Source: Planctomycetota bacterium (GTDB lineage: Bacteria; Planctomycetota; UBA11346). Taken from it: a stretch of DNA of 62,025 nucleotides. Every line of letters starts with the position of its first letter. The first letter of the stretch is position 1. Both the position numbers and the translations under genes were made by a program. Where the stretch lies: the NCBI GenBank assembly GCA_027859175.1, contig JAQIBG010000003.1:1-62025 (forward strand), written 5' to 3'. This document shows, one piece after another, positions 9,594-27,281 of the stretch. The notes under the pieces were generated by a model. The model did not search any database and was not told where the DNA came from. It saw only the letters and a program-made list of their open reading frames with translations.

Positions 9594-9654
9594 CGAGTCA
9601 CCTGCCAGGAACCACGGCGGTCAGACAAACGCTCCTGATTCGCTGGTCTCAGCT

Positions 9655-12150
9655 TCAGATCCGAGCCCGACGCAAGCGCAAGGCATTGCCGATAACCGAG
9701 ACCGAGCTAAACGACATGGCCGCCGCGGCGATCATGGGGTTGAGCAAGAGCCCGAAAACGGGGAACAGCACACCGGCAGCAATCGGAATACCCAAGGCGT
9801 TGTAGGCAAAAGCAAAAAACAGGTTCTGGCGAATATTGCGCATGGTGGCACGGCTCAGGCGGCGGGCGCGCACAATGCCGCGCAAATCGCCCTTTACCAA
9901 AGTCACCCCGGCCGACTGCATCGCCACATCGGTACCGGTGCCCATGGCGATGCCAACCTGGGCCTGAGCCAGCGCCGGAGAGTCATTGATGCCATCTCCG
10001 GCCATGGCGACCGTTCGCCCTTCCGCCTGGAGACGCTTAACCGCGTCGACCTTTTGTTCGGGTAACACATCGGCAATCACCTCATCGATGTCGAGTCGCG
10101 CAGCCACCGCTTCTGCCGTGCGGCGATTGTCACCAGTGAGCATCACCACCCGCAACCCTTCGTGGTGCAGGTCGCGCAGGGCCTCAGCACTGGTTTCCTT
10201 GATCGGATCAGACACCGCCACCACGCCGGCCGCGCGTCCGTCGGCGGCCACAAACATGGCGGTGGCCCCGTCATCACGCAGGCGGTCGGCAACCTGTTCC
10301 AGCGCCTCCACCGCAACGCCCTCTTGGTGCATCAAGGCAAGATTGCCGAAGACCACGCGAACACCGTCAACAATGCCGATGACCCCCTTGCCGGTCACCG
10401 AATCAAACTCTTCGGCATCAACCAGAGCCAATTCGCGCGCCTCGGCACCGCGCACAATCGCAGCGGCAAGTGGATGCTCGCTGGCTTTATCAAGGCTGGC
10501 TGCCAAGCGAAGCACCTCCTCCGCATCGAAACCCGAGCTCGGCTCCACCGCCGTCAACTCAGGATGGCCACGCGTAAGCGTTCCCGTTTTGTCAACCAGC
10601 AAGGTGTCAACCTGCCGCATCACCTCAATCGCCTCGGCGTTCCGGAACAAAATACCAAGCTTGGCCCCCTTGCCGGTCGCCACCATAATCGACATCGGCG
10701 TTGCCAGGCCAAGCGCACAAGGGCAGGCAATAATCAGCACGCCGATCGCATTGACGAGGGCGAAGGCCAGCGCTGGGGCAGGGCCAAACGCGGCCCATAC
10801 GCCGAAAGTGATCACTGCGCTCAACACCACCGCGGGCACAAACCACGCCGCCACACGGTCGGCTAGGCGTTGGATCGGCGCGCGACTGCGCTGAGCCTCG
10901 GCAACCATCTGTACGATCTGAGCCAATAAGGTCTCACCACCAACCTTGCGGGCTTCCATGACCAATCCGCCGGTGCCGTTGATCGTAGCCCCAACAACAT
11001 GGTCACCGGGTGCCTTATCGACCGGCATCGCCTCGCCGCTTATCATAGACTCGTCAACCGTGCTGGTCCCGGAGAGCACCTCGCCATCAACCGGAACCTT
11101 TTCACCAGGCCGCACACGCAGATGGTCGCCAACTCGCACCTGATCGAGCAGTACGTCTTCGTCTTCGCCATCGGGGGTAATCCGCCGCGCGGTTTTTGCC
11201 GCCAGTCCAAGCAAAGACCGGACAGCAGCTCCAGTCGCATTGCGGGCGCGCAACTCGAGAACCTGCCCCAATAACACCAAGCTGACGATGACCGCAGCGG
11301 CCTCAAAATACACGGCCGGTCGACCAGATTCCTGGCGAAACCCAGCCGGGAAGATCCCAGGCGCTAAAACCGCCACGAGGCTGTACAGGTAAGCGACGCC
11401 AACACCGATACCGATGAGCGTAAACATATTCAATTTCATGGTGCGCAGCGAGCGCCAACAGCGCACGAAAAACGGCCAAGCACCGTAAACCACTACGGGC
11501 GTGGCGAGCACTAATTCCAACCAAGCGGCAAGTCCGGCCCCAAGCCAATTGCGGACTGGATGCCCAATAAGCATGTCGCCCATGACGTAGATCACGATCG
11601 GTACCGTAAAGACAAGGCTTACCCAAAAACGCCGCCGCATGTTCAGATATTCTGGATCTGCCTTCTGATCGGCGTCAGGGCGGTGTGGCTGCAAGGCCAT
11701 CCCGCAGAGCGGGCAGTCACCTGGCTGTTCGCGTTCGACTTCCGGATGCATCGGACAGGTGTACGTGCTTGCTGGGCCCGCAACGGGCTCGGATGCCTCA
11801 AGGGCCATGCCGCACTCAGGACACGAACCAGGACCCGCCTCACGGACCGCCGGGTGCATCGGGCAGGTATAGACCGCGGCATCGCCACGCTGAACCGGTT
11901 CACCCCCACGCGGAGCCTGGTCATGCGAGCCGTGCTCACCATGACAACAACCACCCTCCTGGGCCTCAGGTGCCTTTGGGTCCGCTGGCGCTGCGTAGCG
12001 CTGGGGCTCTGCTTCAAAGCGCTTCTGGCACGCACTGCTGCAAAAGCGCCAGTGTCGGCCATCGTAGTCGACCTGATGCGCGTCCGCTTCTTCATCGACA
12101 ATCATGCCGCACACCGGATCACGCTGGCCTGCGTCGTTCTGCTTACCCAT
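9655..12150 (-). CDS. copA: Cu(I)/Ag(I)-translocating P1B-type ATPase with an N-terminal TRASH/YHS module and two CPMHP...CPxCGM metal-binding modules
   Basis: P-type ATPase motifs: CPC ([13 protein letters not shown]), [17 protein letters not shown] and TGES-like SGEAMPV. The N-terminus carries [60 protein letters not shown] and [18 protein letters not shown]. No classical GMTCxxC HMA domain is present. Start taken at the internal ATG 12150. Confidence 0.9.
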
Positions 12151-12325
12151 GTTCTCGACTCCTCGTCGCCATGTGTACGTCCAACCAGCCTTGGCTAGCG
12201 GTTCCGAGTTCCATGAGATGGCAACCAACTTCACACAGAACGCGATCCTATCGCAACGTCAGCGTCCGCCGGGCGGGGGCCGTAAAGAACCAAGCTCAGC
12301 ACGCAACACCAACAACCCTACTCCA

Positions 12326-13795
12326 TTACGAATGAGCTGTCGCCTCCTCAGATGCCTGATGCTCATGCTCGTGCTCATGCTCGTGCTCGTGCTCGTGCCC
12401 GTGCTCGTGCCCGTGCTCATGCCCCTCGGGTGGCGGCCCTCGCAGGCGGAAATAGACCAACTCCATCACCAACAAGCCAAGCATGATAGCCAGGGCAACC
12501 GCCAGAATTGCGGGATCCTGCTCGAACTTGACAAGCAGGAAGCCACTCAAGACCAAGGCATCAAGACCGATCGCCGTCCAGAGAATCGCCGCACGCGGCT
12601 GCAACTCCTGTCGGAGATGCCGCCACACGCCCCAGTGCAACGCAATATCCATAGTAAGATAGAAAATAATGCCAAGAGCGGCAATTCGCGACAGGTCAAA
12701 AAAGGCCGTCAAAACCAGACCAAGCACAACCGTGTAGACGAGAGTGTGCTGTTGGATGTCACCTGGCATGCGAAAGTGGCTATGTGGCACCAATCGCATC
12801 TCGGTCAACATCGCCAACATGCGAGAGACCGCAAAGATACTTGCCAGCAGTCCTCCTGCCGTGGCCGTCATCGCCAGAATGACGGTAAACCACACGCCAA
12901 CATCACCGAGCACTGGCCGGGCAGCCGCAGCGAGCGCATAGTCACGTTTGGCGACTATCTCATCCAGCGACAGATTAACCACGACGGCAGCCCCAACCAA
13001 TCCATAGATCACGATACACAAGGCAATCGCGATGATAATTGCCCGACCAACATTGCGACGCGGATCAACGATCTCTGAACCACTATTGGTAATTGTGGTA
13101 AACCCTTTGAAAGCAAGAATACCAAGTGCTGTCGCGCCCAAGAACCCAGCTATCGACATGTCGCCCTCAGGACTAACAGTCGGAATGGCGCCCGACCACG
13201 ATTCAGCGAGTGTCAGGCCGACAATGGCAAATACCGCGATACCAACAACTTTGATCACGCCTAGAGACCCAGCGACACGACCAATCCACTTGGTCCCTGC
13301 CAGATTGACTGCAAACACTAGCAATATCAGGCCAACGCCAAGGCCAGGCACCAAGTAGCCGGCTGCGTCGCCAGCTCCCGGCCACAATTGCACGGCATAG
13401 GAGCCGAAGGTTCGCGCCAGGAAGCTTTGCGCAATCACCATAGAACTGTACATGAGCAGCGCATGAAAAGCGGTCGTCACGCTTGGGCCGTAGGCCTTCT
13501 CGAGAAACATCCCGATGCCACCAGCCGACGGGAACTTATGTGACAATAAGACATAAGAATAGGCGCTGAAACCAACAACGATTGCGGCAACCAGGAAAGC
13601 CACAGGGAACAAGGCCCCGGTCATGCCGGCCATCTGCCCAGTCAGGGCAAAAATACCGGCACCAATCATCACCCCAGTCCCTAGCCATACCGAGCCTGCC
13701 AGGGACAGCGAACCTTCGGCGTAGTCAGGGCTCTTGTTTTCCGCATTAGATTTCATCTGAGCTTTCACCTTCTTGTTGTCAACTGAGCCAAGCAT
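12326..13795 (-). CDS. APC-superfamily amino-acid/polyamine permease with a C-terminal (His-Glu/His-Gly)n tail
   Basis: About 12 hydrophobic segments. The N-terminal part, LSLAGSVWLGTGVMIGAGIFALTGQMAG, is typical of APC permeases. The tail reads PEGHEHGHEHGHEHEHEHEHEHEHQASEE. Confidence 0.85.
   Translation of the reverse strand: MLGSVDNKKVKAQMKSNAENKSPDYAEGSLSLAGSVWLGTGVMIGAGIFALTGQMAGMTGALFPVAFLVAAIVVGFSAYSYVLLSHKFPSAGGIGMFLEKAYGPSVTTAFHALLMYSSMVIAQSFLARTFGSYAVQLWPGAGDAAGYLVPGLGVGLILLVFAVNLAGTKWIGRVAGSLGVIKVVGIAVFAIVGLTLAESWSGAIPTVSPEGDMSIAGFLGATALGILAFKGFTTITNSGSEIVDPRRNVGRAIIIAIALCIVIYGLVGAAVVVNLSLDEIVAKRDYALAAAARPVLGDVGVWFTVILAMTATAGGLLASIFAVSRMLAMLTEMRLVPHSHFRMPGDIQQHTLVYTVVLGLVLTAFFDLSRIAALGIIFYLTMDIALHWGVWRHLRQELQPRAAILWTAIGLDALVLSGFLLVKFEQDPAILAVALAIMLGLLVMELVYFRLRGPPPEGHEHGHEHGHEHEHEHEHEHEHQASEEATAHS
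12359..12424. repeat. Hexanucleotide microsatellite, 11 units of (a/g)tgc(t/c)c, encoding the His-Glu/His-Gly tail
   Basis: Read directly from the sequence: atgctc atgctc gtgctc atgctc gtgctc gtgctc gtgccc gtgctc gtgccc gtgctc atgccc. Confidence 0.9.
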
Positions 13796-14015: not shown

Positions 14016-14897
14016 CTAAGGCAGGAAATAGTCACCTCCATAAATCAGTGATCCCCCGAAATGCCCAGCGATGGCAACCAGCACCGCCGTTGCGGAAACA
14101 GTCCAAAGCCATCCACGTGGCCGCGCAGGGCTGATGAGGCTACGACCAACGAAAATGCTGGATGCGAGCGCTAGGACGGCAACGGACGTCCCTGCCATTT
14201 GATGAGTCAACAGGATAGTCTCATTGCCAGGGTAGCTCGCTGAGGTCCACGTGGCCCAGCCAAACAGAGTCGCGATAAGCGCACTTGCGGTACCAACGTG
14301 GGTGCATACGAGTGCTGCATTGAGCACCCCCGTCACGGCCGGACGAACGACATGGACCCAGGCTAAGCCTGCTGCAAGCATCAACAAAGCCACAGGGAAG
14401 TGCACCAAAACAATATGAAACCGACCCAAGTAGGCTATCACGGCCCACACTCCGCTCTGTCCCCGATGGGTATCATGATCGTGAGAATCCTGCTCTGTAT
14501 GGTCGTCAGATCCTTCCCCTGCTTGATCGTCAGTGTCGTCAACCGACTTCACCCCTTCAATAGCGGCCCCTGGTTTCGCCTCATGACGGTCGCTATTCGC
14601 AGCATCGTCATGCGCGTGAACCGGCTCAGATTGAGCAGCCACTTGCTGGAGCTGCCAAGCACGCACATAGCGCGACGGGGCCTTCCTGAAGTCTCTTACG
14701 CAACCCCGACAGCAAACGCCATAAACAACACCGTCGTGCGTGACACTCAGCCCCGGAACAACCATTTCGTCAGTCGTCACAATACACATCTCATTTCCAG
14801 CTGACTCAACGACCGAGGCCGGAGCACTTGGAGCGAGCAGCACGACAAGAAGCAGTAACAAGAACTTCACGGATCCCCCCCTGCCAGTACGGCGCAT
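14016..14897 (-). CDS. Membrane protein: signal/anchor + TRASH/YHS-like module + His/Asp-rich linker + DUF2231-like 4-TM domain
   Basis: TRASH-like segment CIVTTDEMVVPGLSVTHDGVVYGVCCRGCVRDFRKAPSRY. Linker HAHDDAANSDRHE...GSDDHTEQDSHDHDTH. Membrane part FHIVLVHFPVALLMLA, followed by three more TM segments. Start taken at ATG 14897 (MRRTGRGGSVKFLLLLLVV). Confidence 0.65.
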   Translation of the reverse strand: MRRTGRGGSVKFLLLLLVVLLAPSAPASVVESAGNEMCIVTTDEMVVPGLSVTHDGVVYGVCCRGCVRDFRKAPSRYVRAWQLQQVAAQSEPVHAHDDAANSDRHEAKPGAAIEGVKSVDDTDDQAGEGSDDHTEQDSHDHDTHRGQSGVWAVIAYLGRFHIVLVHFPVALLMLAAGLAWVHVVRPAVTGVLNAALVCTHVGTASALIATLFGWATWTSASYPGNETILLTHQMAGTSVAVLALASSIFVGRSLISPARPRGWLWTVSATAVLVAIAGHFGGSLIYGGDYFLP

Positions 14898-14985
14898 GGA
14901 ACTCGGACATCCCCATGCCACAGCAATCCCCTACATGGCGAAAGCTGCAAGCAGACATACGTTTCGACAATCATCGCAAAGCGCC

Positions 14986-17900
14986 TCACGTGATAACCTT
15001 CCGTTCGTCCCCCGGGACTTCACCGATGCGTTCAACATCATTCTCGTCTGCTGCGCCCGGGTAGGTTCTCGCATGAATGAGGTACCAAATCACTGGGTAA
15101 AGGACCAACTCCGCGATAAAGCTGGTCGCTAGGCCGCCGATCATCGGAGCGGCCAAACGGCGCATGGTATCGGCACCAGCCCCCGCGCCCCACATCAAGG
15201 GCAGCAAGCCAATCATTGTGGTACAGACGGTCATCGTCTTCGGCCGTATACGCTGTACGGCGCCGTCGTGGATTGCCCACCACAGATCATCACGCGTGAC
15301 AAGACGCCCAGCTTTAGCAAACTTCTTGCAGCTATCCTCTAGGTAATGGAGCATTACCAATCCGGTCTCAGCATCGAGGCCAGCCAGGGCGATAATGCCA
15401 ACAGCAACTGCAACTGAGAAATTGTAGTCGAGCAAGTACAGCAGCCATACGGCGCCAATGGCACTGAACGGAACGGCAAGTAACACTATGCCCGTTTGGA
15501 TCCAGCTCCTCGTGGCCATGTAAAGCAGTAGCACAATTACCATAAACGCCAATGGAACGGCTACCATCAGCTTTGCATTGGCCTCTTCCATATATTCAAA
15601 CTGCCCTGACCAAATGATGCTATATCCTGGCGGTAGGGCGACCTTGCGGGCAATAACATCCTTGGCCTGAGAAACGTAGCCACCCATGTCGCTGATGTGA
15701 GGAGTCACATAGAGCCAGGACGTCGGCCGCGCATTTTCACTCTTGATCATGGGCGGACCCTTGCGCTCTGTAATCACCGCCAACTGACCGAGAGGGACCT
15801 GGGTTCCACCCGGCGTGCGAACAAGCACCTCTTTCAGCTGCTCAAGGTCCTCACGCAGTTCACGTGGATAGCGCAAGTTGACCGGGTAACGCTCTAATCC
15901 CTCAACAGTCCAGGTAACGGTCATCCCACCCAATGCAGTCATGATATGCGCCTGAACGTCGGCAACATCCAAGCCATATCGCTGAATCGCTAACCGGTCG
16001 ATGGCGATGTTGGTGTAATTTCCACCCGTAGCACGATCGGCGGCCACCGATGCTGTAATTGGAGCGATACCAGGATCCGTCCGTAGGACATTTTCGATCT
16101 CTTTGGTTACACTGCTGAGGACCTCCAAATCTGGACCCATAATCTTGACGCCAACGGGCGTCTTGATCCCGGTCGCAAGCATGTCAATCCGAGTTCGAAT
16201 CGGCATGGCACCGCGCGTCAAGGCGCCTGTTAGGCCAGGAATGCGCAGTACTTCATTCACGCCAGGAACCCAGGTACCGTTTGGCAATGCGTACCCATCC
16301 GTCAATTCATCGATAGTAATTGGACGATTATATCTAATTAGCCCCCACAACCACGTATCCTCACGTTGACGCCACTTCGACTTGTCCCGTTCCAGCGCAA
16401 TCGTTGTTTCTATCATCGTAAGGGGTGCAGGATCAGTCGCACTATCGGCACGACCCGCCTTGCCCATAACGCTGGCGACCTCGGGAAACTGAACCAGCAG
16501 CTTATCTGTCTGCTGAAGCAACTCCTTAGCCTTGGTGACCGACAAGCCGGGGTCGGTGTTCGGCATGTACAGGAAGTCACCTTCCTCAAGTGGCGGCATG
16601 AACTCAGAGCCAATTCGCGATGCCGGATACCATGTAACTGCAAACAAGACGACAGAAATGAGAATGACCGCATAACGAAAGCGCATTGCCAGGGCAAAGA
16701 CTGGGTTGTAAAGGACCTGAAGCAATCGCGACGTTGGATTCCGATCTTCTGGCAGCAGCCGCTGCGGCACGATGAGAACCAACGACAGAACTACCCAACT
16801 GATCGCCAATACCCCACGGTAAGAAGCCAAGCCAGCCATAGGAACAGAAAGAATCACCAGCGCTGGTAAAATGCTGATGGCGCCGGTGATGGCCCACGCC
16901 TTTCCGCGAGACCACGCCAGGGGGAGACTTCGCTCTGTTATAAACAAGCTCATTGCCACCGGGATCAGCGTAATTGAAAGAACCGCCGCAACACCCATCG
17001 CGAAGGTCTTCGTATAAGCCAATGGCGCGAACATGCGCCCGCTCTGTCCAGTCAAAACAAAGACCGGTATAAAACTAACCGTAATAATCAGCAAACTGAA
17101 GAACAGCGTCGGTCCAACTTCAGCAGCAGCATCAGCGATGACCGCCGAATTTGAGCGTTGAGGCGCACCCGCCGCGACGGCCTGCTTCTCTCGCTCCAGC
17201 GCATTATGGGCGTTCTCTACCATGATGATTGCAGAGTCCACCATAACACCGATGGCGATCGCTATGCCCCCTAGGCTCATAATATTGGCATTGATGCCCA
17301 GGACATGCATAAGGATCAAAGATCCGAGTACCCCCGTTGGCAACACCAATGCGGCAACAAGCGCGGACCGAGCATGAAGCAAAAACACAAGGACAATCAA
17401 CGAAACAACGAGAATCTCCTCAATCAACGTTCCCGTGAGCGTATGCACGGCACGGTTTATGAGGCCTGATCGGTCATAGGCCGTTACAACATCCACACCC
17501 GGTGGGAGCCCACCTTTGAGTTCGCCAAGGCGGGTCTTTACGCGCTCGATTGTTCGAAGCGCATTCTCGCCAAAACGCATCACAACAATCCCGCCAACGG
17601 TTTCGCCCTCGCCGTTCAACTCGGCAACACCACGGCGAATTTCGGGGCCGAGATTAACTGAGGCTACATCCCCAAGCGTGACGGGTTCTCCAGCAGATGT
17701 CACCTTGAGCGCGATCTTTTCCAGGTCAGAGATAACTCGCCGCCGGGACTCAGCAACAGCATCGATGCCGTCGCGGGCCGCCTCTTCAATCATCGCGTCG
17801 GTCAGTGTGCCCAAATAGCCTTGCCCAACGATCATGAACTCGGTCTCTGCTTGCTCAAGCAAGCGCCCGCCCACGTCTTGATTGCTTCTCTTGATAGCAT

Positions 17901-18807
17901 CCCTGATCTTGCCGAGGCTCAGGTCGTGCGCTTGCAACCGCACTGGGTCCACGGTCACCTGGTACTGCCTGATCATGCCGCCAACCGCAGCGATCTCACT
18001 GACGCCCTCGACGGTCGTGAGTTCATAACGCAGATACCAGTCCTGAATGCTCCGCAAATCTGCCAACGAAAGGTCTGGTCGCACCAAAGGCTGGCCACTC
18101 AACGGACACCGCGTTAGCGGCTTCCCGCCACTTTTCAGGTGCTCCCTCAATTGAAGATGTGCACGACGTACCTCAGGAGCCAAAGCCGGGTCCGGGTAGC
18201 TCTCGCCCGACTCGGGATCCAGCCATCGACGATAGGGCTCGGGGAATACTCGATGGTGCACCAAACGCCCCAACTGATCAGCGTCGACCGCCTCATCTGG
18301 AGATGCATACCAGGCATTCGTAGCCGGATCATGCCACAACCCTTCTGGGTGATCAGGGCAATAGGCACCCGTCGTCAGCATGTATTGGTAAACCCATCCG
18401 ACACCGGTCGCATCTGGCCCAAGCTGTGGCGACACGCCAGACGGCAAGCGTCCCGCAACAGTGCTTAACTGCTCCAGTACACGTGACCGCGCCCAATACA
18501 TATCAGTGCCGTCTTCAAAGATAATGTAGACGAAGCTCGACCCAAACATGCTGAAACCACGCACATTCTTGGTTTTGGGCACAGCTAGCATGGCGGTGGT
18601 GAGCGGATAGGTAACCTGATCCTCAATAATGCGTGGTGCCTGACCTGGGAACTCAGTGCGAATGATGACCTGCACATCCGACAAATCAGGAATCGCATCT
18701 ACTGTGATGGCCCGGGTGGTCCACAAGCCCCCGGCCACCAAAACCAGGGTCAGGAGAAGGACCATGAATCTATTGTTGATGCAGCCTCGAATGATCGCCG
18801 TAATCAT
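14986..18807 (-). CDS. cusA: CusA-type (monovalent Cu/Ag) HME-RND inner-membrane pump, unusually long (1273 aa)
   Basis: Colinear with E. coli CusA. The TM4 signature [24 protein letters not shown] (17212..17277) is the Cu/Ag type (E. coli: [24 protein letters not shown]). Extra segments are described in the findings. Confidence 0.9.
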   Translation of the reverse strand: [1273 protein letters not shown]

Positions 18808-18811
18808 GATT

Positions 18812-21157
18812 CTACTTGACCTCTACTTCAATGAGACCCTCTGCGGTAGCCTTCCAAGATTCCATCGCGCAACCTGCCATCCCATGGCCGGCGCCAAAAT
18901 AGGGGTTCCTTATCGGCCCTGCCTCGCCCTGAAGCCAAACCCCCTTTTCAGGGACATCCCGAGCCATACCGCATCGATAGAAATTCACTCCATCAAAGGC
19001 GCCAGAACCAGCAGCAGCCGCATCGCGAACGGCAACCAAAACATGGCCAAATGCCACCCGTGCAGACTGCAGGTCAGAAGCCAAACTGATAGCATGGGCC
19101 TGATGCATGGCTGCCACCCAATTCACCCCAAGATCCTCCAGTGCCGTTTTCAGTTCTTTCCCAGCGGTTCTTGACTGCTCAAGATCATTCGCATACAGGG
19201 CCCGCTGCAGTGCCAGAACCATCTCGACGTGTTCAGGCTCAATTGAAATCAGCGCGCCAGTGCTCTGTTTTGCTGTGCCATCATCGGCCTCGTCCGAAGG
19301 CGCTTGTCTCTCACGCTCAGTGTCCGCCTGACCTGCCTTTGGAAGTGCCCATACCTCGGCCGCACAACTACGCATCTCTGACGAAGCGCCGTAATAGGGA
19401 TTACGCACATCATCCCCACGCTGCAGCCAGACGCCGCCCCTGGGAACACCCTCCGCCATACCACATCGCATTCCAACCACCGCACTCGCAAGCCCACTTG
19501 GCTGCCCAAACACTTTGAGCAAGCCGTTCATTGTGATGCTCAGATCTCCAAACCCAACACGCAGCGCCGGCATTGCATGGATGTTCAGCGCAACAGCCTG
19601 AGACTGTAAGGACGCGACATCTGGATATTTGTGGTGAAAGTGCTGATCTGCCTGTGTGCCAATGTCAACGAACTCTGCAACCGAGGCATGAAGGCTTGCA
19701 ACAGCCTCGCCAGTCATGCTGCCATCACCGTCATACAAGACCTCTTGAAGCGCCAGGTAACTGCGCACCACTTTCGCCCATGCCTCTTGTGCACCCCCGG
19801 GCAATTCAATTAGCGATCCCGCCTGCGGGGCCGGAGCCGGGGCCTGCTCTGTCGCCAGATCGCCCTTCATGATTTTCGCCAGAGCCTCACGCATCTTGCT
19901 CTCGCTATCGAGCAAGAACTGTCCGGAAGTAACGACCTGTTCGCCGGCCGTAATACCGTCCTGAATTGCAATGCGGCCATCTGATCCCTTCGGACCAAGC
20001 GTGACATCGCGAGGCTCAAATTTACCTCGCCCCAAACTTACGAAGACCACATTGCGAGAGCCTGTTCCGATAACAGACTCAGCAGGCACGGTGACTGCCT
20101 GGGCTGCTCGCAGTGATGGCATGAAGACCGTAGCAAACATACCTGGCTTAAGCACTGGGCCTTGCGGGCCATCCGCGTTCTCGAATACAAAGCGCACGCG
20201 CACCTCGCGAGTCTGCTGGTCAACTGCAGGGTATATACGCTCGATGCGCCCACTAAATTCGCGGCGTGCTCCGTAATCCATGCGCACCTGGGCTGTCTGC
20301 CCCAACGAGATGAAGGGTAACTGCTGTTCGTAAATGGTCGCCTCAACCCATACGCTGCCGAGGGCAACCAGTCTATAGGCTACGGTATTGGGCATTATCT
20401 GACTGCCCTGGTTAATATTCTTAGTCCAAACAACGCCGCTTACGGGTGATCGTATGGTCACGGTATCAGTGGCCGTTCCATCGCTCTGTAAACGAGACAG
20501 TTCCTCTGGAGGAAGTGCCATCAGCTTGAGTCGCTGCTCTGCCGCATCGAGCAGTTGTTCTTTGTGGGCGCTTTCGATGGCCTGGCTCGCAATGAGCCAC
20601 TCGCGTTCCGCTGTCAGCACCTGAGGCGCGTAAATACGAAAGAGCGGATCTCCTGCAGCAACGCGTGTCCATTTGGCATCTACATACATCTCCTCTATCC
20701 ACCCACCAAAGCGCTGGACGATGTCCGTAACCTGAGACTCATCGATTGTCACGGTGCCAACGGTTCGAACATCCCGAATGATGTCGCCGATCCGTGCCTC
20801 TGCGATACGCACGCCCATGTTCTGAACGATCACCGGGTCAATACTGATCTCCCCGGCAAAACGGTCGGGGTCAACCGGAGTCAGATCCATCCCGCAAATG
20901 GGACACTGACCCGGTTCAGGCTGAATGATCCAGGGGTGCATCTGGCTTATATACCACGTTCCAGACGCAGCCTTTTCTTCAACAGCAGCAGCCCGGTGCG
21001 AGTCGGCCCACGATTTGACCACAGGGCCGATCGCCACTCCTACGGTCATGGCTATTAGCGCAATGACCGCACAGATGACGATGATACGAAGTGATGGGCC
21101 ACGCGGCGGCTTACCACTATGGGTAGTCGGCGCAGAGGATGGGTTTCTTTCGGACAT
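18812..21157 (-). CDS. cusB: CusB-type periplasmic adaptor with an N-terminal metal-binding module and a 348-aa C-terminal extension (two DUF3347-like modules)
   Basis: N-terminal module WYISQMHPWIIQPEPGQCPICGMDLTPV (20873..20956). The barrel-sandwich/beta-barrel core extends to ...SGQFLLDSESKMREA. The extension spans 18815..19858. Start taken at ATG 21157 (MSERNP.. then a TM anchor), 13 nt after the cusC stop codon. Confidence 0.85.
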   Translation of the reverse strand: MSERNPSSAPTTHSGKPPRGPSLRIIVICAVIALIAMTVGVAIGPVVKSWADSHRAAAVEEKAASGTWYISQMHPWIIQPEPGQCPICGMDLTPVDPDRFAGEISIDPVIVQNMGVRIAEARIGDIIRDVRTVGTVTIDESQVTDIVQRFGGWIEEMYVDAKWTRVAAGDPLFRIYAPQVLTAEREWLIASQAIESAHKEQLLDAAEQRLKLMALPPEELSRLQSDGTATDTVTIRSPVSGVVWTKNINQGSQIMPNTVAYRLVALGSVWVEATIYEQQLPFISLGQTAQVRMDYGARREFSGRIERIYPAVDQQTREVRVRFVFENADGPQGPVLKPGMFATVFMPSLRAAQAVTVPAESVIGTGSRNVVFVSLGRGKFEPRDVTLGPKGSDGRIAIQDGITAGEQVVTSGQFLLDSESKMREALAKIMKGDLATEQAPAPAPQAGSLIELPGGAQEAWAKVVRSYLALQEVLYDGDGSMTGEAVASLHASVAEFVDIGTQADQHFHHKYPDVASLQSQAVALNIHAMPALRVGFGDLSITMNGLLKVFGQPSGLASAVVGMRCGMAEGVPRGGVWLQRGDDVRNPYYGASSEMRSCAAEVWALPKAGQADTERERQAPSDEADDGTAKQSTGALISIEPEHVEMVLALQRALYANDLEQSRTAGKELKTALEDLGVNWVAAMHQAHAISLASDLQSARVAFGHVLVAVRDAAAAGSGAFDGVNFYRCGMARDVPEKGVWLQGEAGPIRNPYFGAGHGMAGCAMESWKATAEGLIEVEVK

Positions 21158-21170
21158 ATTTGGCCCGTTC

Positions 21171-22577
21171 CTATTCAAGTTCACGGAGTTGCTGAATTGC
21201 ACTGCTGATAACGCCTGCTGACTGTAGGATGCGGGCTTCCGCGACACCGGCATCACGAGTAAGTCGGACAATACTCATCTCTAGCATCAGGAGCTGCTGT
21301 GCCGATTGAATGATGTCGGCGAAGCTACTTGTCCCCGCCATATAGTTGCTCGTTTCCGCTTGGTAGGCCTGCTTGGCCTGCTCAATCATCCCGCCGCGAA
21401 ACAATGCGAGTTGTTCATGGGCGCTTTCCCACCCGCTCAACGCGGTGCGCACATCACGCTTAAGGGTGTCTGAAATCGCCAGCCTCTCACTGGCCACCTC
21501 ATCACGAGCAGCTTCAGCCTCCCTGTCGCTGGCGCCATATGAGTCGAACCAAATTGGCAGACTCATGGAAGCCCCCACCCACCATTGATCCTGACCAGAG
21601 GTAGGCCCCATGAGGTTGCGGTCATCAACCATATTATAGTTGAAACTCAGGCCGAATTCTGGCCTGTGACGAGCTACTGCCATATTGCGGAGCGCGTCGG
21701 CTCGCTGCCGATTGGCAAGATTACCGAGAACGTCCGCGCGATACTGGCGGGCCAAAGGCAGCAATTGATCTTCTCTATATCGATTTTGAGATGGCAGCTT
21801 GTTGTGAATGTCTGGCAAAGGCTCTTCTTGTGGTAATGAGAGAGCTTGGCGCAGATTGGCCATGCTCGTTTGCGCTCGCTCATTCCAGGCCATCTGCATC
21901 GTTCGAAGTCGATCAATCTCAACGCCAATGCGCAAAACATCGCTTTGCTTTCCGCCCCCTACTTCAAGCCGTTGGAGAACCTGCTGTTGGAGTTGTGACA
22001 AAAGACTGATTTGCTCATCAACAATACTGTGACTGCGCGTAGCCGCCCTCCAACTCCACCATGCCTTACGAATTTCCGCAGCGATCTTGACTTGCTCAGC
22101 ATGCCAGGCTGCTTCCGCAGTACGGACATCGGCACGCGCCCGAGCCACTTGAGCACTCAAAAGACCTGGCGCCGGAAACTGCTGACTTACTCCCGCCATC
22201 AGCGCAACTTCACCGGCAGCCGTTTGTGCCATGTCACCGAATGGAGCCACCTGAATCTTCGGAGCGGGAAGACTGCCGGTGGCATCCACACGATGCGTCA
22301 TGCGATCGACGGCAATCGACTTGGCCTGCACCGCCGGATTGCGATCCAGCCCAAACAGAACCAACCCATCCAGATCAGTTGGTGCACGGTCCTGTTGGTG
22401 ATCATCATTCACCAGAGCGCTCGATGTCGGCGGGCCCTGCATGCGAGCGGTGCCCTCGGTCACCAAAGCCCGTTGCGAGTTTTCACTCTGAATCCTTCTC
22501 GCGCTCACCTCCCAAACCGGCGTACAAGCCGAAAAGAAGACTGCCAGGATGGCCGTGACCGTGACAGTAAAGCGCAT
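21171..22577 (-). CDS. cusC: TolC/CusC-family outer-membrane efflux protein
   Basis: 468 aa with a signal/lipoprotein-like N-terminus MRFTVTVTAILAVFFSAC. It has the two-repeat coiled-coil/beta-barrel OEP pattern and sits first of a cusCBA order. Confidence 0.8.
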   Translation of the reverse strand: MRFTVTVTAILAVFFSACTPVWEVSARRIQSENSQRALVTEGTARMQGPPTSSALVNDDHQQDRAPTDLDGLVLFGLDRNPAVQAKSIAVDRMTHRVDATGSLPAPKIQVAPFGDMAQTAAGEVALMAGVSQQFPAPGLLSAQVARARADVRTAEAAWHAEQVKIAAEIRKAWWSWRAATRSHSIVDEQISLLSQLQQQVLQRLEVGGGKQSDVLRIGVEIDRLRTMQMAWNERAQTSMANLRQALSLPQEEPLPDIHNKLPSQNRYREDQLLPLARQYRADVLGNLANRQRADALRNMAVARHRPEFGLSFNYNMVDDRNLMGPTSGQDQWWVGASMSLPIWFDSYGASDREAEAARDEVASERLAISDTLKRDVRTALSGWESAHEQLALFRGGMIEQAKQAYQAETSNYMAGTSSFADIIQSAQQLLMLEMSIVRLTRDAGVAEARILQSAGVISSAIQQLRELE

Positions 22578-22768
22578 GTTCCTGTTCCTTAAAAAAAGGC
22601 CCGATGAGGACCACCGCGAGCGCCAATGCCGGTTCCGCCAATCTCTGACGTATCGCCTACTGTGCGCTGCAAAGCGGGGCCCTCATGAGCCATCAACGGT
22701 CGAAAAACCGTTTTGTGCTGGACCATAAGCCCCGGTAGCGCCTTTAGTCGCAGCACCTCACAAAGAAG

Positions 22769-23158
22769 TCAGTCTTTATGTTTGTGCTCATCGTGCTGCA
22801 TCCCACCCGCGCCCTTTTCATGTGGCATGGTCGCCTTCTCGTGGGGCATGGGGCCCGATTCACCATGGGCCGCACCTTCCAGTCGCTTCATTTTCTTAAG
22901 ATAGAGGTCTGGTTGAGCTGCAAACTTTTTGATGCATCCATTACAGCAAACAGTCACCTCCTGACCTGCGTACACGAAGGAGCGTTCCATGCCCTTCATG
23001 CTTCCGATCGCTTCATCACTCACCAAGCAGGTGGCGATTGGATATGGGCGGAAGGTGACGATGGTACTTGGGTCAAGTGGGTCGCCCTCAACTGCACTGA
23101 GAGATGAAGTGGCAACGATAGCGAGTATCAGCGAAACCGCGACGTTAGTTGTGCGCAT
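22769..23158 (-). CDS. Small exported TRASH/YHS-like protein with a Met/His-rich tail
   Basis: GGAG lies 8 nt upstream of ATG 23158. Signal peptide MRTTNVAVSLILAIVATSSLSA. TRASH-like segment CLVSDEAIGSMKGMERSFVYAGQEVTVCCNGCIKKFAAQPDLY. Tail HGESGPMPHEKATMPHEKGAGGMQHDEHKHKD. Confidence 0.65.
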   Translation of the reverse strand: MRTTNVAVSLILAIVATSSLSAVEGDPLDPSTIVTFRPYPIATCLVSDEAIGSMKGMERSFVYAGQEVTVCCNGCIKKFAAQPDLYLKKMKRLEGAAHGESGPMPHEKATMPHEKGAGGMQHDEHKHKD

Positions 23159-23206
23159 GGAAGGACTCCTCATGGTGGTTCTGGTTACGCCATGAAAGGT
23201 CACCTA

Positions 23207-23222
23207 TGCACCGGCTGTTCCA
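23207..23222 (-). promoter_or_regulatory. Weak sigma-54-like -24/-12 element (TGGAAC-N5-GTGCA) upstream of the small TRASH gene
   Basis: On the minus strand TGGAACAGCCGGTGCA has the GG-N10-GC spacing of the TGGCACG-N4-TTGC consensus. It ends 48 nt before the ATG. This is a single motif match, and no activator gene is seen in the window. Confidence 0.2.
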
Positions 23223-23354
23223 TCGTTTGTCTGCCTATCACACTAGTCGCTAATCGAGTGGAATCTTATGCCATTGTCATTACATGGGTTACATACCATG
23301 ATCAGTAACGGTCTCCACGTACCCGCAAAGCCCTAGCAACCAAACTGGACCACG

Positions 23355-24041
23355 ATGGCGAGCTCACTCTTCCCCCCAACACGCTGGAGTCTCATTGATC
23401 ACATCGATGACCAACACTCGATGACCTTACTTCTCGAGCATTACGCTGATGCCCTGACTCGCTATCTGGGCAGCAAGTTCCCCGAAATGCGACGACGCGG
23501 TGACATCGACGATTTGGTTCAGGAAGTCTTATTGGCACTCATGAGGCAAGGCCATGTCTTGCAACGAGCGGATCCGGCTCATGGCGGCCGATTCCGCCAC
23601 TTCCTCATGCGCGTTGCCTACAATGCAGCGCGCAATGCGCGAAGGCGGCTCGATCGTCATCACTGGAGCCTACTGGCAGACGAGGCAGTGGCCGAGTGCG
23701 TTAACGATGATACTGAGGTCTTACACGAGACAGAAATGGACCGCGCTTGGGCAGAGAGCATCTTGCATCAAGCCTGGACCGAATTGCGTGCCTGGGCAGC
23801 GCAAGGACATATTGAAGCCGACGGCGTTGAACTCCTAGAGCGTAATCTTCTGAATAATCAGGCATTACGTAATGCAGCAGGCGAGATGGGGCTGAGTCTC
23901 GGCACAGCGCATCGTCGCATTGCCAAAGCACGCACCCTTCTGCGTCAGGCCGTCATTGAACACCTGCGCTTCACCGGCGAACTTATTGAAGGCAACGAAG
24001 ATGAAGCTTTTGATCTTTTGATGAAAGCACTCCAGATCTAA
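23355..24041 (+). CDS. ECF-type sigma-70 factor (ECF43-like, kinase-associated)
   Basis: N-terminal PPTRWSLI motif. Region 2 reads DDLVQEVLLALM ... FRHFLMRVAYNAARNARRR. Region 4 HTH reads AAGEMGLSLGTAHRRIAKARTLLRQAV. It is followed 44 nt later by a Ser/Thr kinase gene. Confidence 0.8.
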   Translation: MASSLFPPTRWSLIDHIDDQHSMTLLLEHYADALTRYLGSKFPEMRRRGDIDDLVQEVLLALMRQGHVLQRADPAHGGRFRHFLMRVAYNAARNARRRLDRHHWSLLADEAVAECVNDDTEVLHETEMDRAWAESILHQAWTELRAWAAQGHIEADGVELLERNLLNNQALRNAAGEMGLSLGTAHRRIAKARTLLRQAVIEHLRFTGELIEGNEDEAFDLLMKALQI

Positions 24042-24085
24042 TCGGGTATGGAACACTTTCCATAACAGGAACCTTTCTCCATACC

Positions 24086-26404
24086 ATGTCCACACCAATG
24101 AATGCCTGGAAACCGTCGGACGAAGACCTTGCGTCATACGTCCGCGGCGCTCTGCCCACCGTACGCTTTACTCAAGTAGATAATTGGCTGGCACAACAAG
24201 ATGAGGACATGGTCGCGGCACTCCTGGAACTGGCGAACGGAAGACAGGCGCCGTCATATGCCAGCACTAGTGACTCAGATTCGGGTACGTACAAGTCCAG
24301 CGGCCGGCATCGATTTACCATTGCCGAGAACATTGCCTCTGGTGGCATGGGGTCGATCGACTCCGTTTACGACGGAATCTTAGACCGGGATGTGGTCCTT
24401 AAGAGGTGCCACCCTCGCGCGCCAGACGAACCGGTCGAAACCCACCTTGAACGGCAACACCTATTCAGACTCGAGGCCCTTCTCACGGCGAGGCTCGAGC
24501 ATCCATCCATCATTCCAGTCCATGACTTTGGCCAGGATGAGTTCGGCGAACCAAGCATGGTCCTTAAAAAGCTCAATGGCCAGGATCTCATGCTTTACGC
24601 CAAAGAGCATCGCAAGAATGCCAACTGGTCCATTACTGAAGGGGTTGACATTGCCATTAGGGTCTGCGAGGCGATGGCTTACGCGCATGCGGCAGGCGTT
24701 GTTCACCGTGACCTAAAACCTGACAACCTCATTATTGGCGAGTATGGTGCGGTTACCGTCATTGATTGGGGACTTGCAGCCGCGATCAAGCCTGCGCCAG
24801 AATTATCAACAGACCAAGGCGACCATCCAACCGCAGCGCCAGTGGCCCCTGTTACCCACTTCTACGGAACCCCGGCGTGGATGGCGCCGGAACAGGCACG
24901 CGGAACGCCCGCTGATCCCCGCATGGACGTATGGGCTCTTGGAGGCATTCTCGCCTTCATGTTCACGGGGAAAGATCCGAGGAAGTTGCCGAAGCAATGT
25001 TCCCGCACAACTCTGGTTGAGACGATTCGCAATACCCCACCCAATGATCGGCGCTATTTCGAGGCGATGCCACCATCCCTGAGAGCCGTTGCGCAACGCT
25101 GCCTGGATCGCAACCCAGAGCACCGTTACCCACATGCGGGGGCCGTCTTGGCTGAACTTCGGCGATGGCTCAGCGACGGCATTACCGAGGCACAAAACCC
25201 TGGTCCAGTCCGGCGAGGAATGGCTCTGATCCGCCGCTACCGTGGACCAGTCATCGTTGCGCTCACTTCTATTCTGTTGATTGGCGCGTTCGCGCTTAGC
25301 CAGGTTTTGCACCACAGATACCACACTGCTTTTGCCGAAGAAACCGCCGCTCGACTACTTTCACAGACCCCCGTGCTTGATCTCGATGCGGTGGAAACAG
25401 CGCTCGTTCAGCTTGATGCAATGCGAGAACAATACGGCGACTTACCCGCAATTACCGCGGCGCATGGCCATTTCACCTCGGTTGCCAATGACCTACGCGA
25501 ACAGATTGCACTCGAAGACCTTGAAGCAAGGTTGACTGCAATTGAGACGGACACACGAATCCGAGGCCCCCAGGCCAGTCAAATCGCAACGCGAATGGCC
25601 TTACTCAACGATGCGGGCATTGACTGGGAAAATCCGTCCGCTCACACAAACCTGTCAGAGCACCCGCTAAGCGATGAACTTCTGGCCAACCTGGCAGCGC
25701 TAGAAGGCCTCCTTCTTCTGCACGATCGCAACCATGATGAACACCGCCACCAGCAGCATGAGCAGATACGTGATCTGTTCAGGTCAGCTTCGTCGTCTCC
25801 ACCCTGGACAAGTTTGGCCAGCATTTTGGAGGCTGCTCACGTACAACCTCACGACCTACACTTGCCCAATACCATCGATGATGACCTGTCGGCAGCACTG
25901 GCCCACCCCGTGGTCGCCGATGTGCTCTTACCAATAACAGCACCCGATGCCCGATTATTGGTCTATGCAACCAAGCGCCTGAACGACAATATTGGCGCCA
26001 ATATTGGCGCCTTCTGGCCACACATGCTGTTAGCACGCAGCTATTTGGTAGACGGACGCCTCAGCCAGGCAGAGAGGCATGCGCTCATCGCGCTCGGCAC
26101 TGAGCCCGACAGCTCGCTGCCAAAGCTCCTGCTCGCTTACGTAGCACTTGAACGATCTGATACCGTTGGATTTCAACAGTATTTCGAGTCCCTGAAAAAC
26201 GAAACGAATGAGAGTGTTGAGATACTTATCCTCAACGCTGCCTTTCTCGCAAAAAACGGGAAGACTGTTGCGGCGCAAGACGCAATTGACGCCGGCAATC
26301 CATGGGACCACCTGCGCTTGCATAGCCACGTTCACGCTCCACATCCAATGGACCGAAGCATTGCCGTTTTGAAGGCAGCAGGTGTAAGGTTGACTCCACC
26401 GTAG
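24086..26404 (+). CDS. Hanks-type Ser/Thr protein kinase with one TM segment and a TPR-like C-terminal domain
   Basis: Catalytic motifs: G-loop ASGGMGSIDSV, VVLK, HRDLKPDNLI, DWG (DFG variant) and GTPAWMAPEQ. TM segment VIVALTSILLIGAFALSQV. The C-terminal part consists of helical repeats. Confidence 0.9.
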   Translation: MSTPMNAWKPSDEDLASYVRGALPTVRFTQVDNWLAQQDEDMVAALLELANGRQAPSYASTSDSDSGTYKSSGRHRFTIAENIASGGMGSIDSVYDGILDRDVVLKRCHPRAPDEPVETHLERQHLFRLEALLTARLEHPSIIPVHDFGQDEFGEPSMVLKKLNGQDLMLYAKEHRKNANWSITEGVDIAIRVCEAMAYAHAAGVVHRDLKPDNLIIGEYGAVTVIDWGLAAAIKPAPELSTDQGDHPTAAPVAPVTHFYGTPAWMAPEQARGTPADPRMDVWALGGILAFMFTGKDPRKLPKQCSRTTLVETIRNTPPNDRRYFEAMPPSLRAVAQRCLDRNPEHRYPHAGAVLAELRRWLSDGITEAQNPGPVRRGMALIRRYRGPVIVALTSILLIGAFALSQVLHHRYHTAFAEETAARLLSQTPVLDLDAVETALVQLDAMREQYGDLPAITAAHGHFTSVANDLREQIALEDLEARLTAIETDTRIRGPQASQIATRMALLNDAGIDWENPSAHTNLSEHPLSDELLANLAALEGLLLLHDRNHDEHRHQQHEQIRDLFRSASSSPPWTSLASILEAAHVQPHDLHLPNTIDDDLSAALAHPVVADVLLPITAPDARLLVYATKRLNDNIGANIGAFWPHMLLARSYLVDGRLSQAERHALIALGTEPDSSLPKLLLAYVALERSDTVGFQQYFESLKNETNESVEILILNAAFLAKNGKTVAAQDAIDAGNPWDHLRLHSHVHAPHPMDRSIAVLKAAGVRLTPP

Positions 26405-26629
26405 CTAATAAAGATGCGCTGGAACACGACTGCCGCGTGAAATCTTCACCTATGCCGCAGGGCCTCTGGTACACCGTGAAGCAACCCAACAAATCCAGGA
26501 GTCGCCTGCGCTATAACGCAAGCCATTGGCCACAACCCCTCCTCCCAGCACCGCTGCCTGTCAGCACCACTAAGAGCTTCATAAGCTTACATTGGGTGCC
26601 CGCGACAAGGCCAGCGAGAGGTCCCAAAC

Positions 26630-26836
26630 ATGGCCGACTTAGAACGAACATTATCTCCTGATGGAATAACCCACGATCCCGTATGTGGTCGTCCTGTCGA
26701 CATGCAGACAGCGCCCATGGCGGCCTTTGATGGATGCTACTATTTCTGCGGCATGAAGTGCCGCGAAAAGTTTGTGCGCAATCCACACAAATATCTAATA
26801 CCGCCCTGCAGATCTTGCGCAAAACCAGCAGAGTAA
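26630..26836 (+). CDS. Small YHS/TRASH-domain protein
   Basis: HDPVCGRPVDMQTAPMAAFDGCYYFCGMKCREKFVRNPHKY matches the YHS pattern (DPVCGM.V......... G..Y.FCS..C...F...P..Y). Confidence 0.75.
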   Translation: MADLERTLSPDGITHDPVCGRPVDMQTAPMAAFDGCYYFCGMKCREKFVRNPHKYLIPPCRSCAKPAE

Positions 26837-26973
26837 TCTCTCCCCGCGTGGTCGGCGCAAAACGTAATCTGATAGCGCAACCTGCCCACCTCACATGCGC
26901 GCAGCACAGCCCAACAAGAGCCGACCCAGCAAGGCATGGGTCGGCATCTTTCGCCCCAAAAGGGCATTCTCGA

Positions 26974-27005: not shown

Positions 27006-27014
27006 CGGATGACG

Positions 27015-27281
27015 CTAGCCTCGGTCATAAATAAAGTCGAAACCCTCCCAGAGCTCATCAGACTGCTTCTGTTTTGTGTCTTTGATCTGTTCCAGGGCCT
27101 GCCTGACCGCTTCAACCGTCGCGGCGTCGGCCGGGCGGGCAGACTCTTCCTTCGAGGCAGTGCATGCAGCACATGCAGCACATGCCATCTGTTTGCCCGT
27201 ATTGGCGGGAGCGGGGGCCTCGGCGGCGTTAATCGCCGTGCTCGCCAGGATTGCGGCGACAGTGATAATGATGGTGCGCAT
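27015..27281 (-). CDS. Small secreted protein with a C-A-A-C-A-A-C motif
   Basis: AAGGAG lies 6 nt upstream of ATG 27281. Signal peptide MRTIIITVAAILASTAINA/AE. The mature part contains GKQMACAACAACTASKEE, encoded by a 9-nt tandem repeat (gcagcacat x2 on the plus strand, about 27166..27186). No known family. Confidence 0.5.
   Translation of the reverse strand: MRTIIITVAAILASTAINAAEAPAPANTGKQMACAACAACTASKEESARPADAATVEAVRQALEQIKDTKQKQSDELWEGFDFIYDRG

Follow-up and report, generated by a model that had tools for sequence, protein, structure and literature searches.

How is a copper/silver efflux (cus) operon controlled when the regulators encoded beside it are a sigma factor and a Ser/Thr kinase? 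The question is raised by a locus in 62,025 nucleotides (nt) of DNA from a Planctomycetota bacterium (GenBank assembly GCA_027859175.1, contig JAQIBG010000003.1, positions 1 to 62,025 of the forward strand), which we call the window. In it, a gene for an extracytoplasmic function (ECF)-type sigma factor of 228 amino acids (aa; 23355..24041, + strand) is followed, 44 nt past its stop codon, by the gene for a membrane Hanks-type Ser/Thr kinase of 772 aa (24086..26404, +). Divergent from this pair, with 196 nt between the ATG codons at 23158 and 23355, lies a gene for a secreted TRASH/YHS-like Cys protein of 129 aa with a signal peptide and a His-rich tail (22769..23158, -), which has an AGGAG Shine-Dalgarno sequence ahead of its ATG and leads the cus genes. 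An initial annotation of this DNA had given these coordinates and spacings correctly, and had proposed control of metal efflux by the pair from gene adjacency only, a basis to which conserved synteny and a shared, footprinted promoter motif are now added. We propose, with a probability of about 0.7, that sigma factor and kinase together act as a trans-envelope switch for turning on the export of copper/silver.

A predicted promoter motif beside the sigma-kinase pair and the metal genes

ECF promoters typically show a GGAAC -35 box and a spacer of variable sequence and fixed length. A motif of this appearance, TGGAAC-N15-GACCTT, was found at 23196..23222 (-), 37 nt before the TRASH ATG. It is the only exact match in the window, and we predict it to be the ECF promoter of the TRASH-cus genes, P(TRASH-cus), with the TRASH gene as the first gene behind it. 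A second predicted promoter, P(kinase), has one mismatch (TGGAAC-N15-AACCTT, 24049..24075, +) and occupies the spacer between the sigma and kinase genes. A candidate third promoter with two mismatches (TGGAAC-N15-AATCTT, 26420..26446, +), weaker than the other two, begins 16 nt past the kinase stop and 183 nt ahead of a gene for a small cytoplasmic YHS-domain protein of 68 aa (26630..26836, +; Pfam YHS E 1e-5, under the cut-off). The window contained one exact match, where 0.00 were expected, and three matches with at most one mismatch, where 0.34 were expected; a relaxed pattern, which takes in the candidate third promoter, matched these 62 kb three times, in each case flanking the sigma-kinase module.

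The same motif recurred in the relative loci that we fetched (metagenome contigs and metagenome-assembled genomes (MAGs), 431 kb in all, designated here by L-numbers, with proteins designated by P-numbers). These contained seven exact matches against about 0.1 expected, and every one of the seven was intergenic, aimed at a gene, and located beside the module in a close-clade locus. In L002, an identical TGGAAC-N15-GACCTT stands at the same place ahead of the TRASH gene, while the rest of the intergenic region could not be aligned with that of the window; because the motif is identical in otherwise unalignable regions, the P(TRASH) motif is a classical phylogenetic footprint. The sigma-kinase spacer has an exact copy in L001 and exact copies with N16 in L005 and L006, and that of L008 has GAAAC-N15-GACCTT overlapping the sigma stop. 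Two tandem exact copies in L005 (in the stretch 4704-5863) precede the gene after the kinase, which encodes an ICMT/PEMT-like membrane methyltransferase and is followed by a tiny open reading frame (ORF) and then by a permease fragment 81% identical to the window permease at 12326-13795. The variant TGAAAC-N15-GACCTT was found ahead of the operon that holds the sigma gene in L011, and in L051/L052 ahead of a TRASH gene that is directly followed by the gene for a kinase, P0009, which is distantly related to that of the window and has the same outer domain. ECF sigma factors that control neighbouring genes are known (PMC7826278), and we infer that the motif is read by the adjacent sigma factor. 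That the sigma-kinase pair controls the TRASH and cus genes through TGGAAC-N15/16-GACCTT is, on these comparisons, quite probable.

The initial annotation had suggested that a -35/-10 motif might be shared by the regions upstream of 23158, 23355 and 27281. The first of these carries it, whereas the motif lies before the kinase gene instead of before the sigma gene at 23355, and only the -35 half (TGGAAC) is present upstream of 27281 (orf88), where three mismatches in the -10 region led us to reject it as a confident site. One-mismatch matches inside cusB (20454) and inside a second adaptor gene (38084, 38250) were treated as chance, and a sigma-70-like TTGTCA-17-CATGAT ahead of the sigma gene was not above shuffle expectation. 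A 33-nt near-perfect inverted repeat in L002 (GGCAGGTGTTCCAGGATTTCTGGGACACCTGCC, at 7190-7230), of which the window has no counterpart, encloses the TRASH promoter's -35 box; this repeat may be a site for a further regulator.

Conservation of the sigma-kinase module

The sigma gene is followed by a full-length orthologous kinase gene in L001, L002, L005, L006, L008, L053 and L054, and the two genes are convergent or nearby in L003, L010, L030 and L031. Of six independent close-clade contexts, four have metal genes no more than three genes away from the module. In L002 (a JGI contig whose sigma factor is 57-58% identical to that of the window), cusA-cusB-cusC-TRASH is divergent from sigma-kinase, as in the window. 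The end of a copA gene, 85% identical to window copA over 55 aa, lies beside the module in L006/L007, and a copA gene 53% identical to that of the window lies immediately upstream of it in L008/L009. The region upstream of the sigma gene in L006 (194-2318) encodes a His/Met-rich lipoprotein (HRHGHMHGDGDGKMMDRDEMMRMCPM), after which come a peptidase of the M50 (site-2-protease) family whose N-terminus is rich in His and a protein of 276 aa without a family match. The window TRASH protein matched the YHS model weakly (17.9 bits, E 0.003, cut-off 30.3); it is 41-49% identical to its L002 homologue, over differing aligned stretches, and 42% identical to that of L051; the genes of both homologues are equivalently placed, and its C…CCxGC pattern is kept in both. 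In L012, the kinase gene (9096-9380) beside a 50%-identical sigma stops matching after ~20 residues, and may be a truncated gene or a MAG mis-assembly.

The sigma factor and its family

The sigma factor matched Pfam Sigma70_r2 (35.3 bits) and scored 41.5 bits against TIGR02937 sigma70-ECF (cut-off 42.9), and its family profile aligned with the ECF sigma factors SigL, RpoE and SigH of the PDB over residues 11-209, from sigma-2 through sigma-4. By these matches it is a two-domain ECF (group 4) sigma-70 factor. Its N-terminal PPTRWSLI motif (23373..23396, +), present in all orthologues with T9 and S12 conserved, is the window's version of FPxTRWSL. A public gene call (P0001, 206 aa) begins at the internal Met23 (23421) and loses this motif; because FPxTRWSL is kept in all orthologues, alignment supports a start at 23355 rather than the shorter call. 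The sigma-2.2 motif, DIDDLVQE (23502..23525, +), retains the acidic DxxDxxQE, in which the clade alignment shows no variation at D52 and D53.

A word-indexed search of 5.8 billion proteins gave seven homologues of the sigma factor, and a HMMER scan of 1.84 billion cluster representatives gave 19 at E<=1e-30, which form a tight clade set apart by an E-value gap from 1e-46 to 1e-25 from a wider family of 387 at E<=1e-10. In a sampled member of the wider family (P0029), a kinase gene likewise comes after the sigma gene. The relatives found in genomes all belong to Planctomycetota MAGs. Next-tier relatives have a TCWTLI N-terminus and an xDDAVQEV motif, and other planctomycete kinase-linked ECFs (L014-L042) have T-x-x-SL-x-RL N-termini together with DADDVVQEVLL. 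The homologues place the sigma factor in a small Planctomycetota clade inside a wider kinase-linked family. Its origin, the kinase gene at +1, the lack of a separate anti-sigma factor and the acidic sigma-2.2 fit the planctomycete kinase-linked groups of the ECF61, ECF62 and ECF217 type, without specifying one of them.

The kinase and its anti-sigma-like N-terminus

From N- to C-terminus, the kinase comprises an anti-sigma-like domain, a kinase domain, a transmembrane segment and a helical outer domain. The catalytic domain (aa 80-348; 24323..25129, +; Pfam Pkinase 115 bits) has all of the Hanks motifs, namely a GGMGS Gly-rich loop, VVLK (K106), HRDLKPDN (207-214; N214), DWG (227-229) and APE (267-269), and the last four are invariant in the kinase orthologues. 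The single transmembrane segment (GPVIVALTSILLIGAFALSQVL, aa 387-408; 25244..25309, +) is a hydrophobic stretch that aligned in all orthologues. The intact catalytic motifs and one membrane segment described by the initial annotation were therefore confirmed.

That annotation had also likened the kinase N-terminus to an anti-sigma helix without Zn ligands, and this likeness gained support. The first 45 residues are conserved throughout (consensus P..ELAAYL.GTLP..RFAAVDAWLA). A large-database search with the N-terminal profile gave nothing at E<=0.01, and the anti-sigma homology emerged only on comparison with paralogous kinases: in hhalign, the clade N-termini matched those of other planctomycete sigma-linked kinases with a probability of 91% (E 1e-6, 44 columns). 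Four of seven related kinase N-termini matched zf-HC2 (PF13490) with E 6e-8 to 5e-4, two of them exceeding the gathering score. At the aligned position, other sigma-linked kinases have an intact H-x3-C-x2-C, as in L026 (PEELSAYSLGQLPQERAVAIDSHISECQPC) and L042 (QQLAAFVEGKLNEAEREVVEAHVADCAEC), and in the window kinase these ligands are replaced by W34-x3-Q38-x2-D41. On these alignments, the N-terminal segment DEDLASYVRGALPTVRFTQVDNWLAQ (24119..24196, +) is a degenerate zf-HC2-type anti-sigma domain in which W, Q and D have taken the place of the ligands. For PknS, helices at the N-terminus have been described without interpretation (PMC13147305), and we found no description of an anti-sigma-kinase fusion in the literature searched, of which our coverage was incomplete.

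Such a domain might sequester the sigma factor or might only dock it. In the latter case the regulon would be the same, and the sigma factor would be activated, with no sequestration, by phosphorylation at TRWS or in the segment that links sigma-2 to sigma-4. T9 and S12, which are candidate phospho-acceptors by inference, lie within an invariant motif, the sigma factor EcfK also uses a linker phosphosite, T106 (PMC13147305), and the Zn ligands of the window domain are lost. However, with its acidic motif for core binding retained, the sigma factor would be expected to be active if nothing held it, and the known role of the zf-HC2 domain that is intact in homologous kinases is sigma binding and inhibition. 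We consider docking without sequestration unlikely, although the present sequence data fit both readings.

The outer domain and the predicted signal

The outer domain (~360 aa) is predicted to be all-helical and has no family match. It had been called TPR-like, an assignment that is weak (TPR_14 E 0.13, and an AlphaFold2 model of low confidence). When the outer domain alone was used as a query, the single protein matched was P0009. Its C-terminal end contains a His cluster, HLRLHSHVHAPHPMDRS (26309..26359, +), a candidate metal-binding site with a conserved H-x3-H-x-H…HPM arrangement (H742-x3-H746-x-H748-x4-H753-P-M) that is kept in P0009 and in all five full-length orthologues. A second patch, HDRNHDEHRHQQHE (aa 546-559; 25721..25762, +), is His-rich in close orthologues only (L001, L005). 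These His clusters are suggestive of metal binding, and the chances that the outer domain senses metal through its His cluster seem to us to be even.

The linked exporters are of the copper/silver type. The resistance-nodulation-division (RND) pump, 1273 aa (14986..18807, -), scored 993 bits against Escherichia coli CusA and 370 bits against ZneA, and its three-Met site is kept, with LYMP, TMIE and IDML aligned with E. coli M573, M623 and M672; by this similarity it is a CusA of the Cu/Ag type. With it are encoded a CusB-like adaptor that contains HMBD and is extended at its C-terminus by a long DUF3347-like part (18812..21271, -; HlyD_D23, HMBD, NF007303 CusB 154 bits) and a CusC-like outer-membrane factor (21171..22577, -; Pfam OEP), and domain matches identify a P1B ATPase that is CopA-like and contains YHS and two HMBD (9655..12234, -). 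No CusF-like gene was found among the window genes, and the TRASH-like protein has the leading operon position.

It is conceivable that the circuit operates as proposed in response to something other than copper/silver as such, for example zinc, nickel, cobalt, or envelope or redox damage. Many metals are bound by His clusters, the outer domain is without a recognised metal-binding family, at a distance of 9 kb there is another metal-type RND operon, and the L005 targets include the membrane methyltransferase. Against this stand the CusA Met triad, the HMBD/YHS CopA and the TRASH protein, and a different signal therefore seems improbable to us, though not markedly so; copper or silver is the signal that we prefer.

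Evidence against control of the metal genes by the pair

Several observations weigh against the proposed switch. There is no visible metal gene on the 7-kb contig L001 (67% identity), and the neighbours of distant orthologues (40-50% identity; L003, L010-L013, L027-L031, L053, L054) are, in the DNA available, non-metal genes; the pairing with metal genes, on whose conservation the initial annotation had made its proposal depend, holds in close relatives (cus and TRASH in L002, copA in L006 and L008) but not in these. The motif was absent in the available DNA of L003, L010, L012, L013, L027-L031, L053 and L054. Because distant orthologues are without metal genes or motif, the metal link appears to be confined to one subclade, echoed farther out by the L051 pair of TRASH and kinase genes. 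Unusually for an ECF, the sigma gene has no motif upstream of itself, and feedback would therefore act on the kinase. The -10 element GACCTT is without the CGT/GTC core common in ECF promoters, and a terminator-like hairpin followed by T7 (22598..22616, -) separates the TRASH gene from cusC in the window. The 77 N-terminal residues of the kinase gave no zf-HC2 or other anti-sigma Pfam match at E<=10, and a PDB search with the N-terminal profile gave chance matches alone, e.g. dipeptidyl peptidase. The AlphaFold2 model of the kinase, built on a two-sequence alignment, was unusable (mean predicted local distance difference test 50, predicted template-modelling score 0.29). Finally, a search of public runs found three that contain the window sequence, all of them DNA from a saline-spring metagenome, and no RNA runs.

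A coincidental neighbourhood, or a motif that belongs to another regulator, would leave the cus genes under unlinked control, e.g. by a two-component system elsewhere. Besides the unrelated neighbours of distant orthologues and the sigma gene that lacks the motif, it could be argued that planctomycetes have dozens of ECFs (PMC7826278), and that the window encodes a NarL-type two-component pair (5162-6993) and AraC-type genes (31857, 46313, 50367), which are the only other regulators among its scanned ORFs. However, the module is accompanied by the motif in no fewer than six independent loci, the motif does not occur in about 390 kb of other loci, it is footprinted before the TRASH gene in two genomes, and the linkage of TRASH and kinase genes occurs again in L051. 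Coincidence, or a motif read by another regulator, is thus a quite improbable explanation. Among the ORFs scanned across the window, small ORFs not exhaustively, we found no OmpR-type CusRS or MerR/CueR genes and no zf-HC2, RskA or FecR anti-sigma genes, in agreement with the earlier statement that no anti-sigma, CusRS or CueR gene is present.

The ECF43 question

The sigma factor had initially been called ECF43-like, with an implied EcfP-type mechanism. ECF43 is defined by the loss of the acidic DAED/DxxD motif in sigma-2.2, where the consensus is QTTA with a phospho-Thr, and phosphorylation of this Thr restores the charge needed to bind the beta-prime subunit (PMC13147305, PMC8999054, PMC8103513). 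According to reviews, all ECF43 members are without the acidic motif (PMC8999054), and kinase-linked ECF groups are reported to be without anti-sigma factors (PMC7826278). As in ECF43, a Hanks-type kinase gene is adjacent, here beginning 44 nt downstream, and orthologues keep it; sigma-2.2, however, is not uncharged, as DIDDLVQE has an Asp (D52) at the phospho-Thr position. Because that position is an invariant Asp, the EcfP mechanism cannot apply at the sigma-2.2 site, and neither the group label nor the implied mechanism is supported. The TRWSLI-type N-terminus is present and conserved as described, but it does not serve as a mark of ECF43, since T-x-x-SL-x-RL is found in kinase-linked ECFs with the acidic motif. 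Although the gene order and kinase architecture are those of EcfP/PknT and EcfK/PknS and no separate anti-sigma gene is present (PMC13147305), an ECF43-type pair, with a sigma factor inactive through its uncharged sigma-2.2 and activated there by Thr phosphorylation as in EcfP/PknT, is very hard to reconcile with D52, with the equally invariant D53, with reviews that give no ECF43 member with an acidic motif (PMC8999054), and with relatives that are all Planctomycetota.

The proposed circuit

We propose that the kinase is a membrane receptor whose helical outer domain, with its His cluster, would sense metal in the periplasm, an activity in which the secreted TRASH protein possibly takes part. 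The degenerate anti-sigma domain at its cytoplasmic N-terminus would bind, and hold or dock, the partner sigma factor, which with its core-binding acidic motif should be competent alone. Metal at the His-cluster domain would activate the Hanks domain, and phosphorylation, either at a site of the sigma factor other than sigma-2.2 or in the anti-sigma segment or linker, would free or activate the sigma factor. The holoenzyme of sigma factor and RNA polymerase would then fire TGGAAC-N15/16-GACCTT promoters. Its first target would be TRASH-cusC-cusB-cusA, with probable read-through to the DUF2231, permease and copA genes and possible modulation by the hairpin after TRASH; the second would be the gene of the kinase, so that the sensor would be under positive feedback, and the third, perhaps, the small YHS gene. 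All statements on function, among them that metal is the signal and that the His cluster binds it, are predictions made by comparing sequences.

More tentatively, and with the odds somewhat against it, the kinase may represent a Planctomycetota receptor family in which one polypeptide joins an anti-sigma domain to a Hanks kinase and an extracytoplasmic sensor. The receptor of the clade described here, with its Zn/Cys ligands lost and its His-cluster domain perhaps loaded by the TRASH protein, would be a Cu/Ag sensor driving a regulon of RND and P-type ATPase exporters through TGGAAC-N15/16-GACCTT promoters. If this were true, the anti-sigma function supposedly missing in kinase-linked ECF groups would be built into the kinase, the pair would include the first Ser/Thr-kinase-based metal sensor for cus genes in the literature that we searched, and a second kinase-to-sigma route would exist, mechanistically distinct from the ECF43 charge switch.

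Relation to known systems

Known control of copper/silver efflux relies on CusRS/CopRS, on MerR/CsoR/CopY-type sensors, and on a few ECFs with an anti-sigma factor or a metal-binding extension. In E. coli, CusRS senses periplasmic Cu/Ag and is encoded divergently from cusCFBA. The pair described here resembles CusRS in purpose and differs from it in consisting of a Ser/Thr kinase and a sigma factor rather than a His kinase and an OmpR-type regulator; unlike E. coli cusCFBA, the operon lacks CusF and is led by the TRASH protein. A Hanks kinase with an ECF sigma factor would add another route from periplasmic metal to transcription, and in a literature of which we covered only part, no publication turned up that connects copper efflux with both an ECF and a Ser/Thr kinase.

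Signalling between a sigma factor and a Hanks kinase is proven for EcfP/PknT and EcfK/PknS (PMC13147305). In EcfP/PknT of Vibrio parahaemolyticus and EcfK/PknS of Xanthomonas citri, as here, an ECF is encoded beside a transmembrane Hanks kinase with an N-terminal helical extension and an extracytoplasmic sensor, and no separate anti-sigma gene is present; in those pairs the kinase signals to the sigma factor (PMC13147305, PMC8999054). Unlike them, the window sigma factor retains an acidic sigma-2.2, so that charge restoration cannot be the switch, and the kinase N-terminus is a recognisable zf-HC2 homologue, in a different phylum, the Planctomycetota. The predicted regulon also differs, being metal export here and polymyxin resistance or the type VI secretion system there. 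The predicted Cu/Ag input, regulon, promoter motif and anti-sigma-like kinase N-terminus are the new elements of this locus. The planctomycete groups ECF59-62 and ECF217, predicted by synteny only, share its phylum and the kinase gene at +1, and the acidic motif is reported to be kept in kinase-linked groups other than ECF43, ECF59 and ECF60 (PMC8999054, PMC8103513). What sets the window clade apart from these groups is a promoter motif of its own and a neighbourhood of metal genes, and we found no description of either.

Among metal-responsive ECFs, CnrH-CnrYX/cnrCBA of Cupriavidus metallidurans (ECF291) is similar in having an ECF beside an RND metal-efflux operon and a periplasmic signal, with the sigma factor switching on the operon (PMC7826278). 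The Cnr system uses a CnrX sensor and a small anti-sigma factor, CnrY, whereas here one polypeptide has the sensor, Hanks and anti-sigma-like domains. CorE and CorE2 of Myxococcus xanthus are ECFs that also lack an anti-sigma factor and switch on copper or cadmium export (PMC4937300, PMC8999054); unlike CorE, which senses metal through a Cys-rich C-terminal extension, the window sigma factor has one Cys and no extension. In Mycobacterium tuberculosis, the Hanks kinase PknB phosphorylates zinc-associated anti-sigma (ZAS)-type factors, in the RshA/SigH and RseA/SigE pairs, and phosphorylation of RshA releases SigH (PMC8999054, PMC13147305). The mycobacterial kinase and anti-sigma factors are separate proteins, whereas in the window the kinase polypeptide includes the anti-sigma-like domain, from which the Zn ligands have disappeared.

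Planctomycetes have many kinase-linked ECFs, but studies have covered only two ECF43 pairs, both from Proteobacteria. The locus offers a predicted signal, a defined multi-target motif, a sigma factor barred from the ECF43 charge switch and a kinase with an anti-sigma-like N-terminus; because of these, the control of non-ECF43 kinase-linked sigma factors, a question raised previously (PMC8999054), becomes directly testable.

Other features of the locus

The metal block extends beyond cusA on the same strand (9655-14921), where genes for a DUF2231 membrane protein with an N-terminal TRASH/YHS-like motif (14016..14921, -; similarity to TRASH proteins) and an APC-family permease (12326..13795, -; Pfam AA_permease_2) precede copA; the permease gene is a possible member of the cus transcription unit. 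No recognisable motif copy was found in the intergenic gaps of this block. Between the TRASH gene and cusC, the gap is 191 nt in the window versus 15 nt in L002, and the hairpin that it contains may be an attenuator yielding more TRASH than pump transcript. The C-terminal extension of the CusB-like adaptor is ~350 aa long (aa ~470-819), matches DUF3347 weakly, and contains two repeats of a CGMA..VP..GVWLQ…NPY(F/Y)G-like motif. CusA, with 1273 aa versus 1047 in E. coli, has two insertions, aa 146-246 (~100 aa) and aa 625-682 (~58 aa), without an aligned counterpart in solved CusA.

Downstream of the small YHS gene, an ORF with a signal peptide encodes a small secreted protein of 88 aa with CAACAAC (27015..27281, -). 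It weakly resembles (30% identity, pairwise E 3e-7) a 78-aa secreted protein of L054, whose gene (9623-9859, -) is divergent from the orthologous sigma gene. The second RND system (35407-41752, +) consists of an OEP protein, a CusB/HlyD_D23-type adaptor and a 1028-aa RND pump; no promoter motif was found upstream of it, and a Cys-rich ORF of 122 aa (36672-37040) sits between its first two genes. An Rfam scan of the window gave zero family matches. The two-component genes beyond copA encode a NarL/LuxR-type response regulator and a HisKA_3 histidine kinase (5162-6993, -), and a ferritin/Dps-like gene (8077-8724, -) lies there as well. A DUF1559/N-methyl protein is encoded at 28835-29797, in keeping with a Planctomycetota genome. 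The G+C content is 55-57% over ~12000-28000 versus 60-66% on either flank, and because it is below that of both flanks, the metal block and its regulators may be an acquired island.

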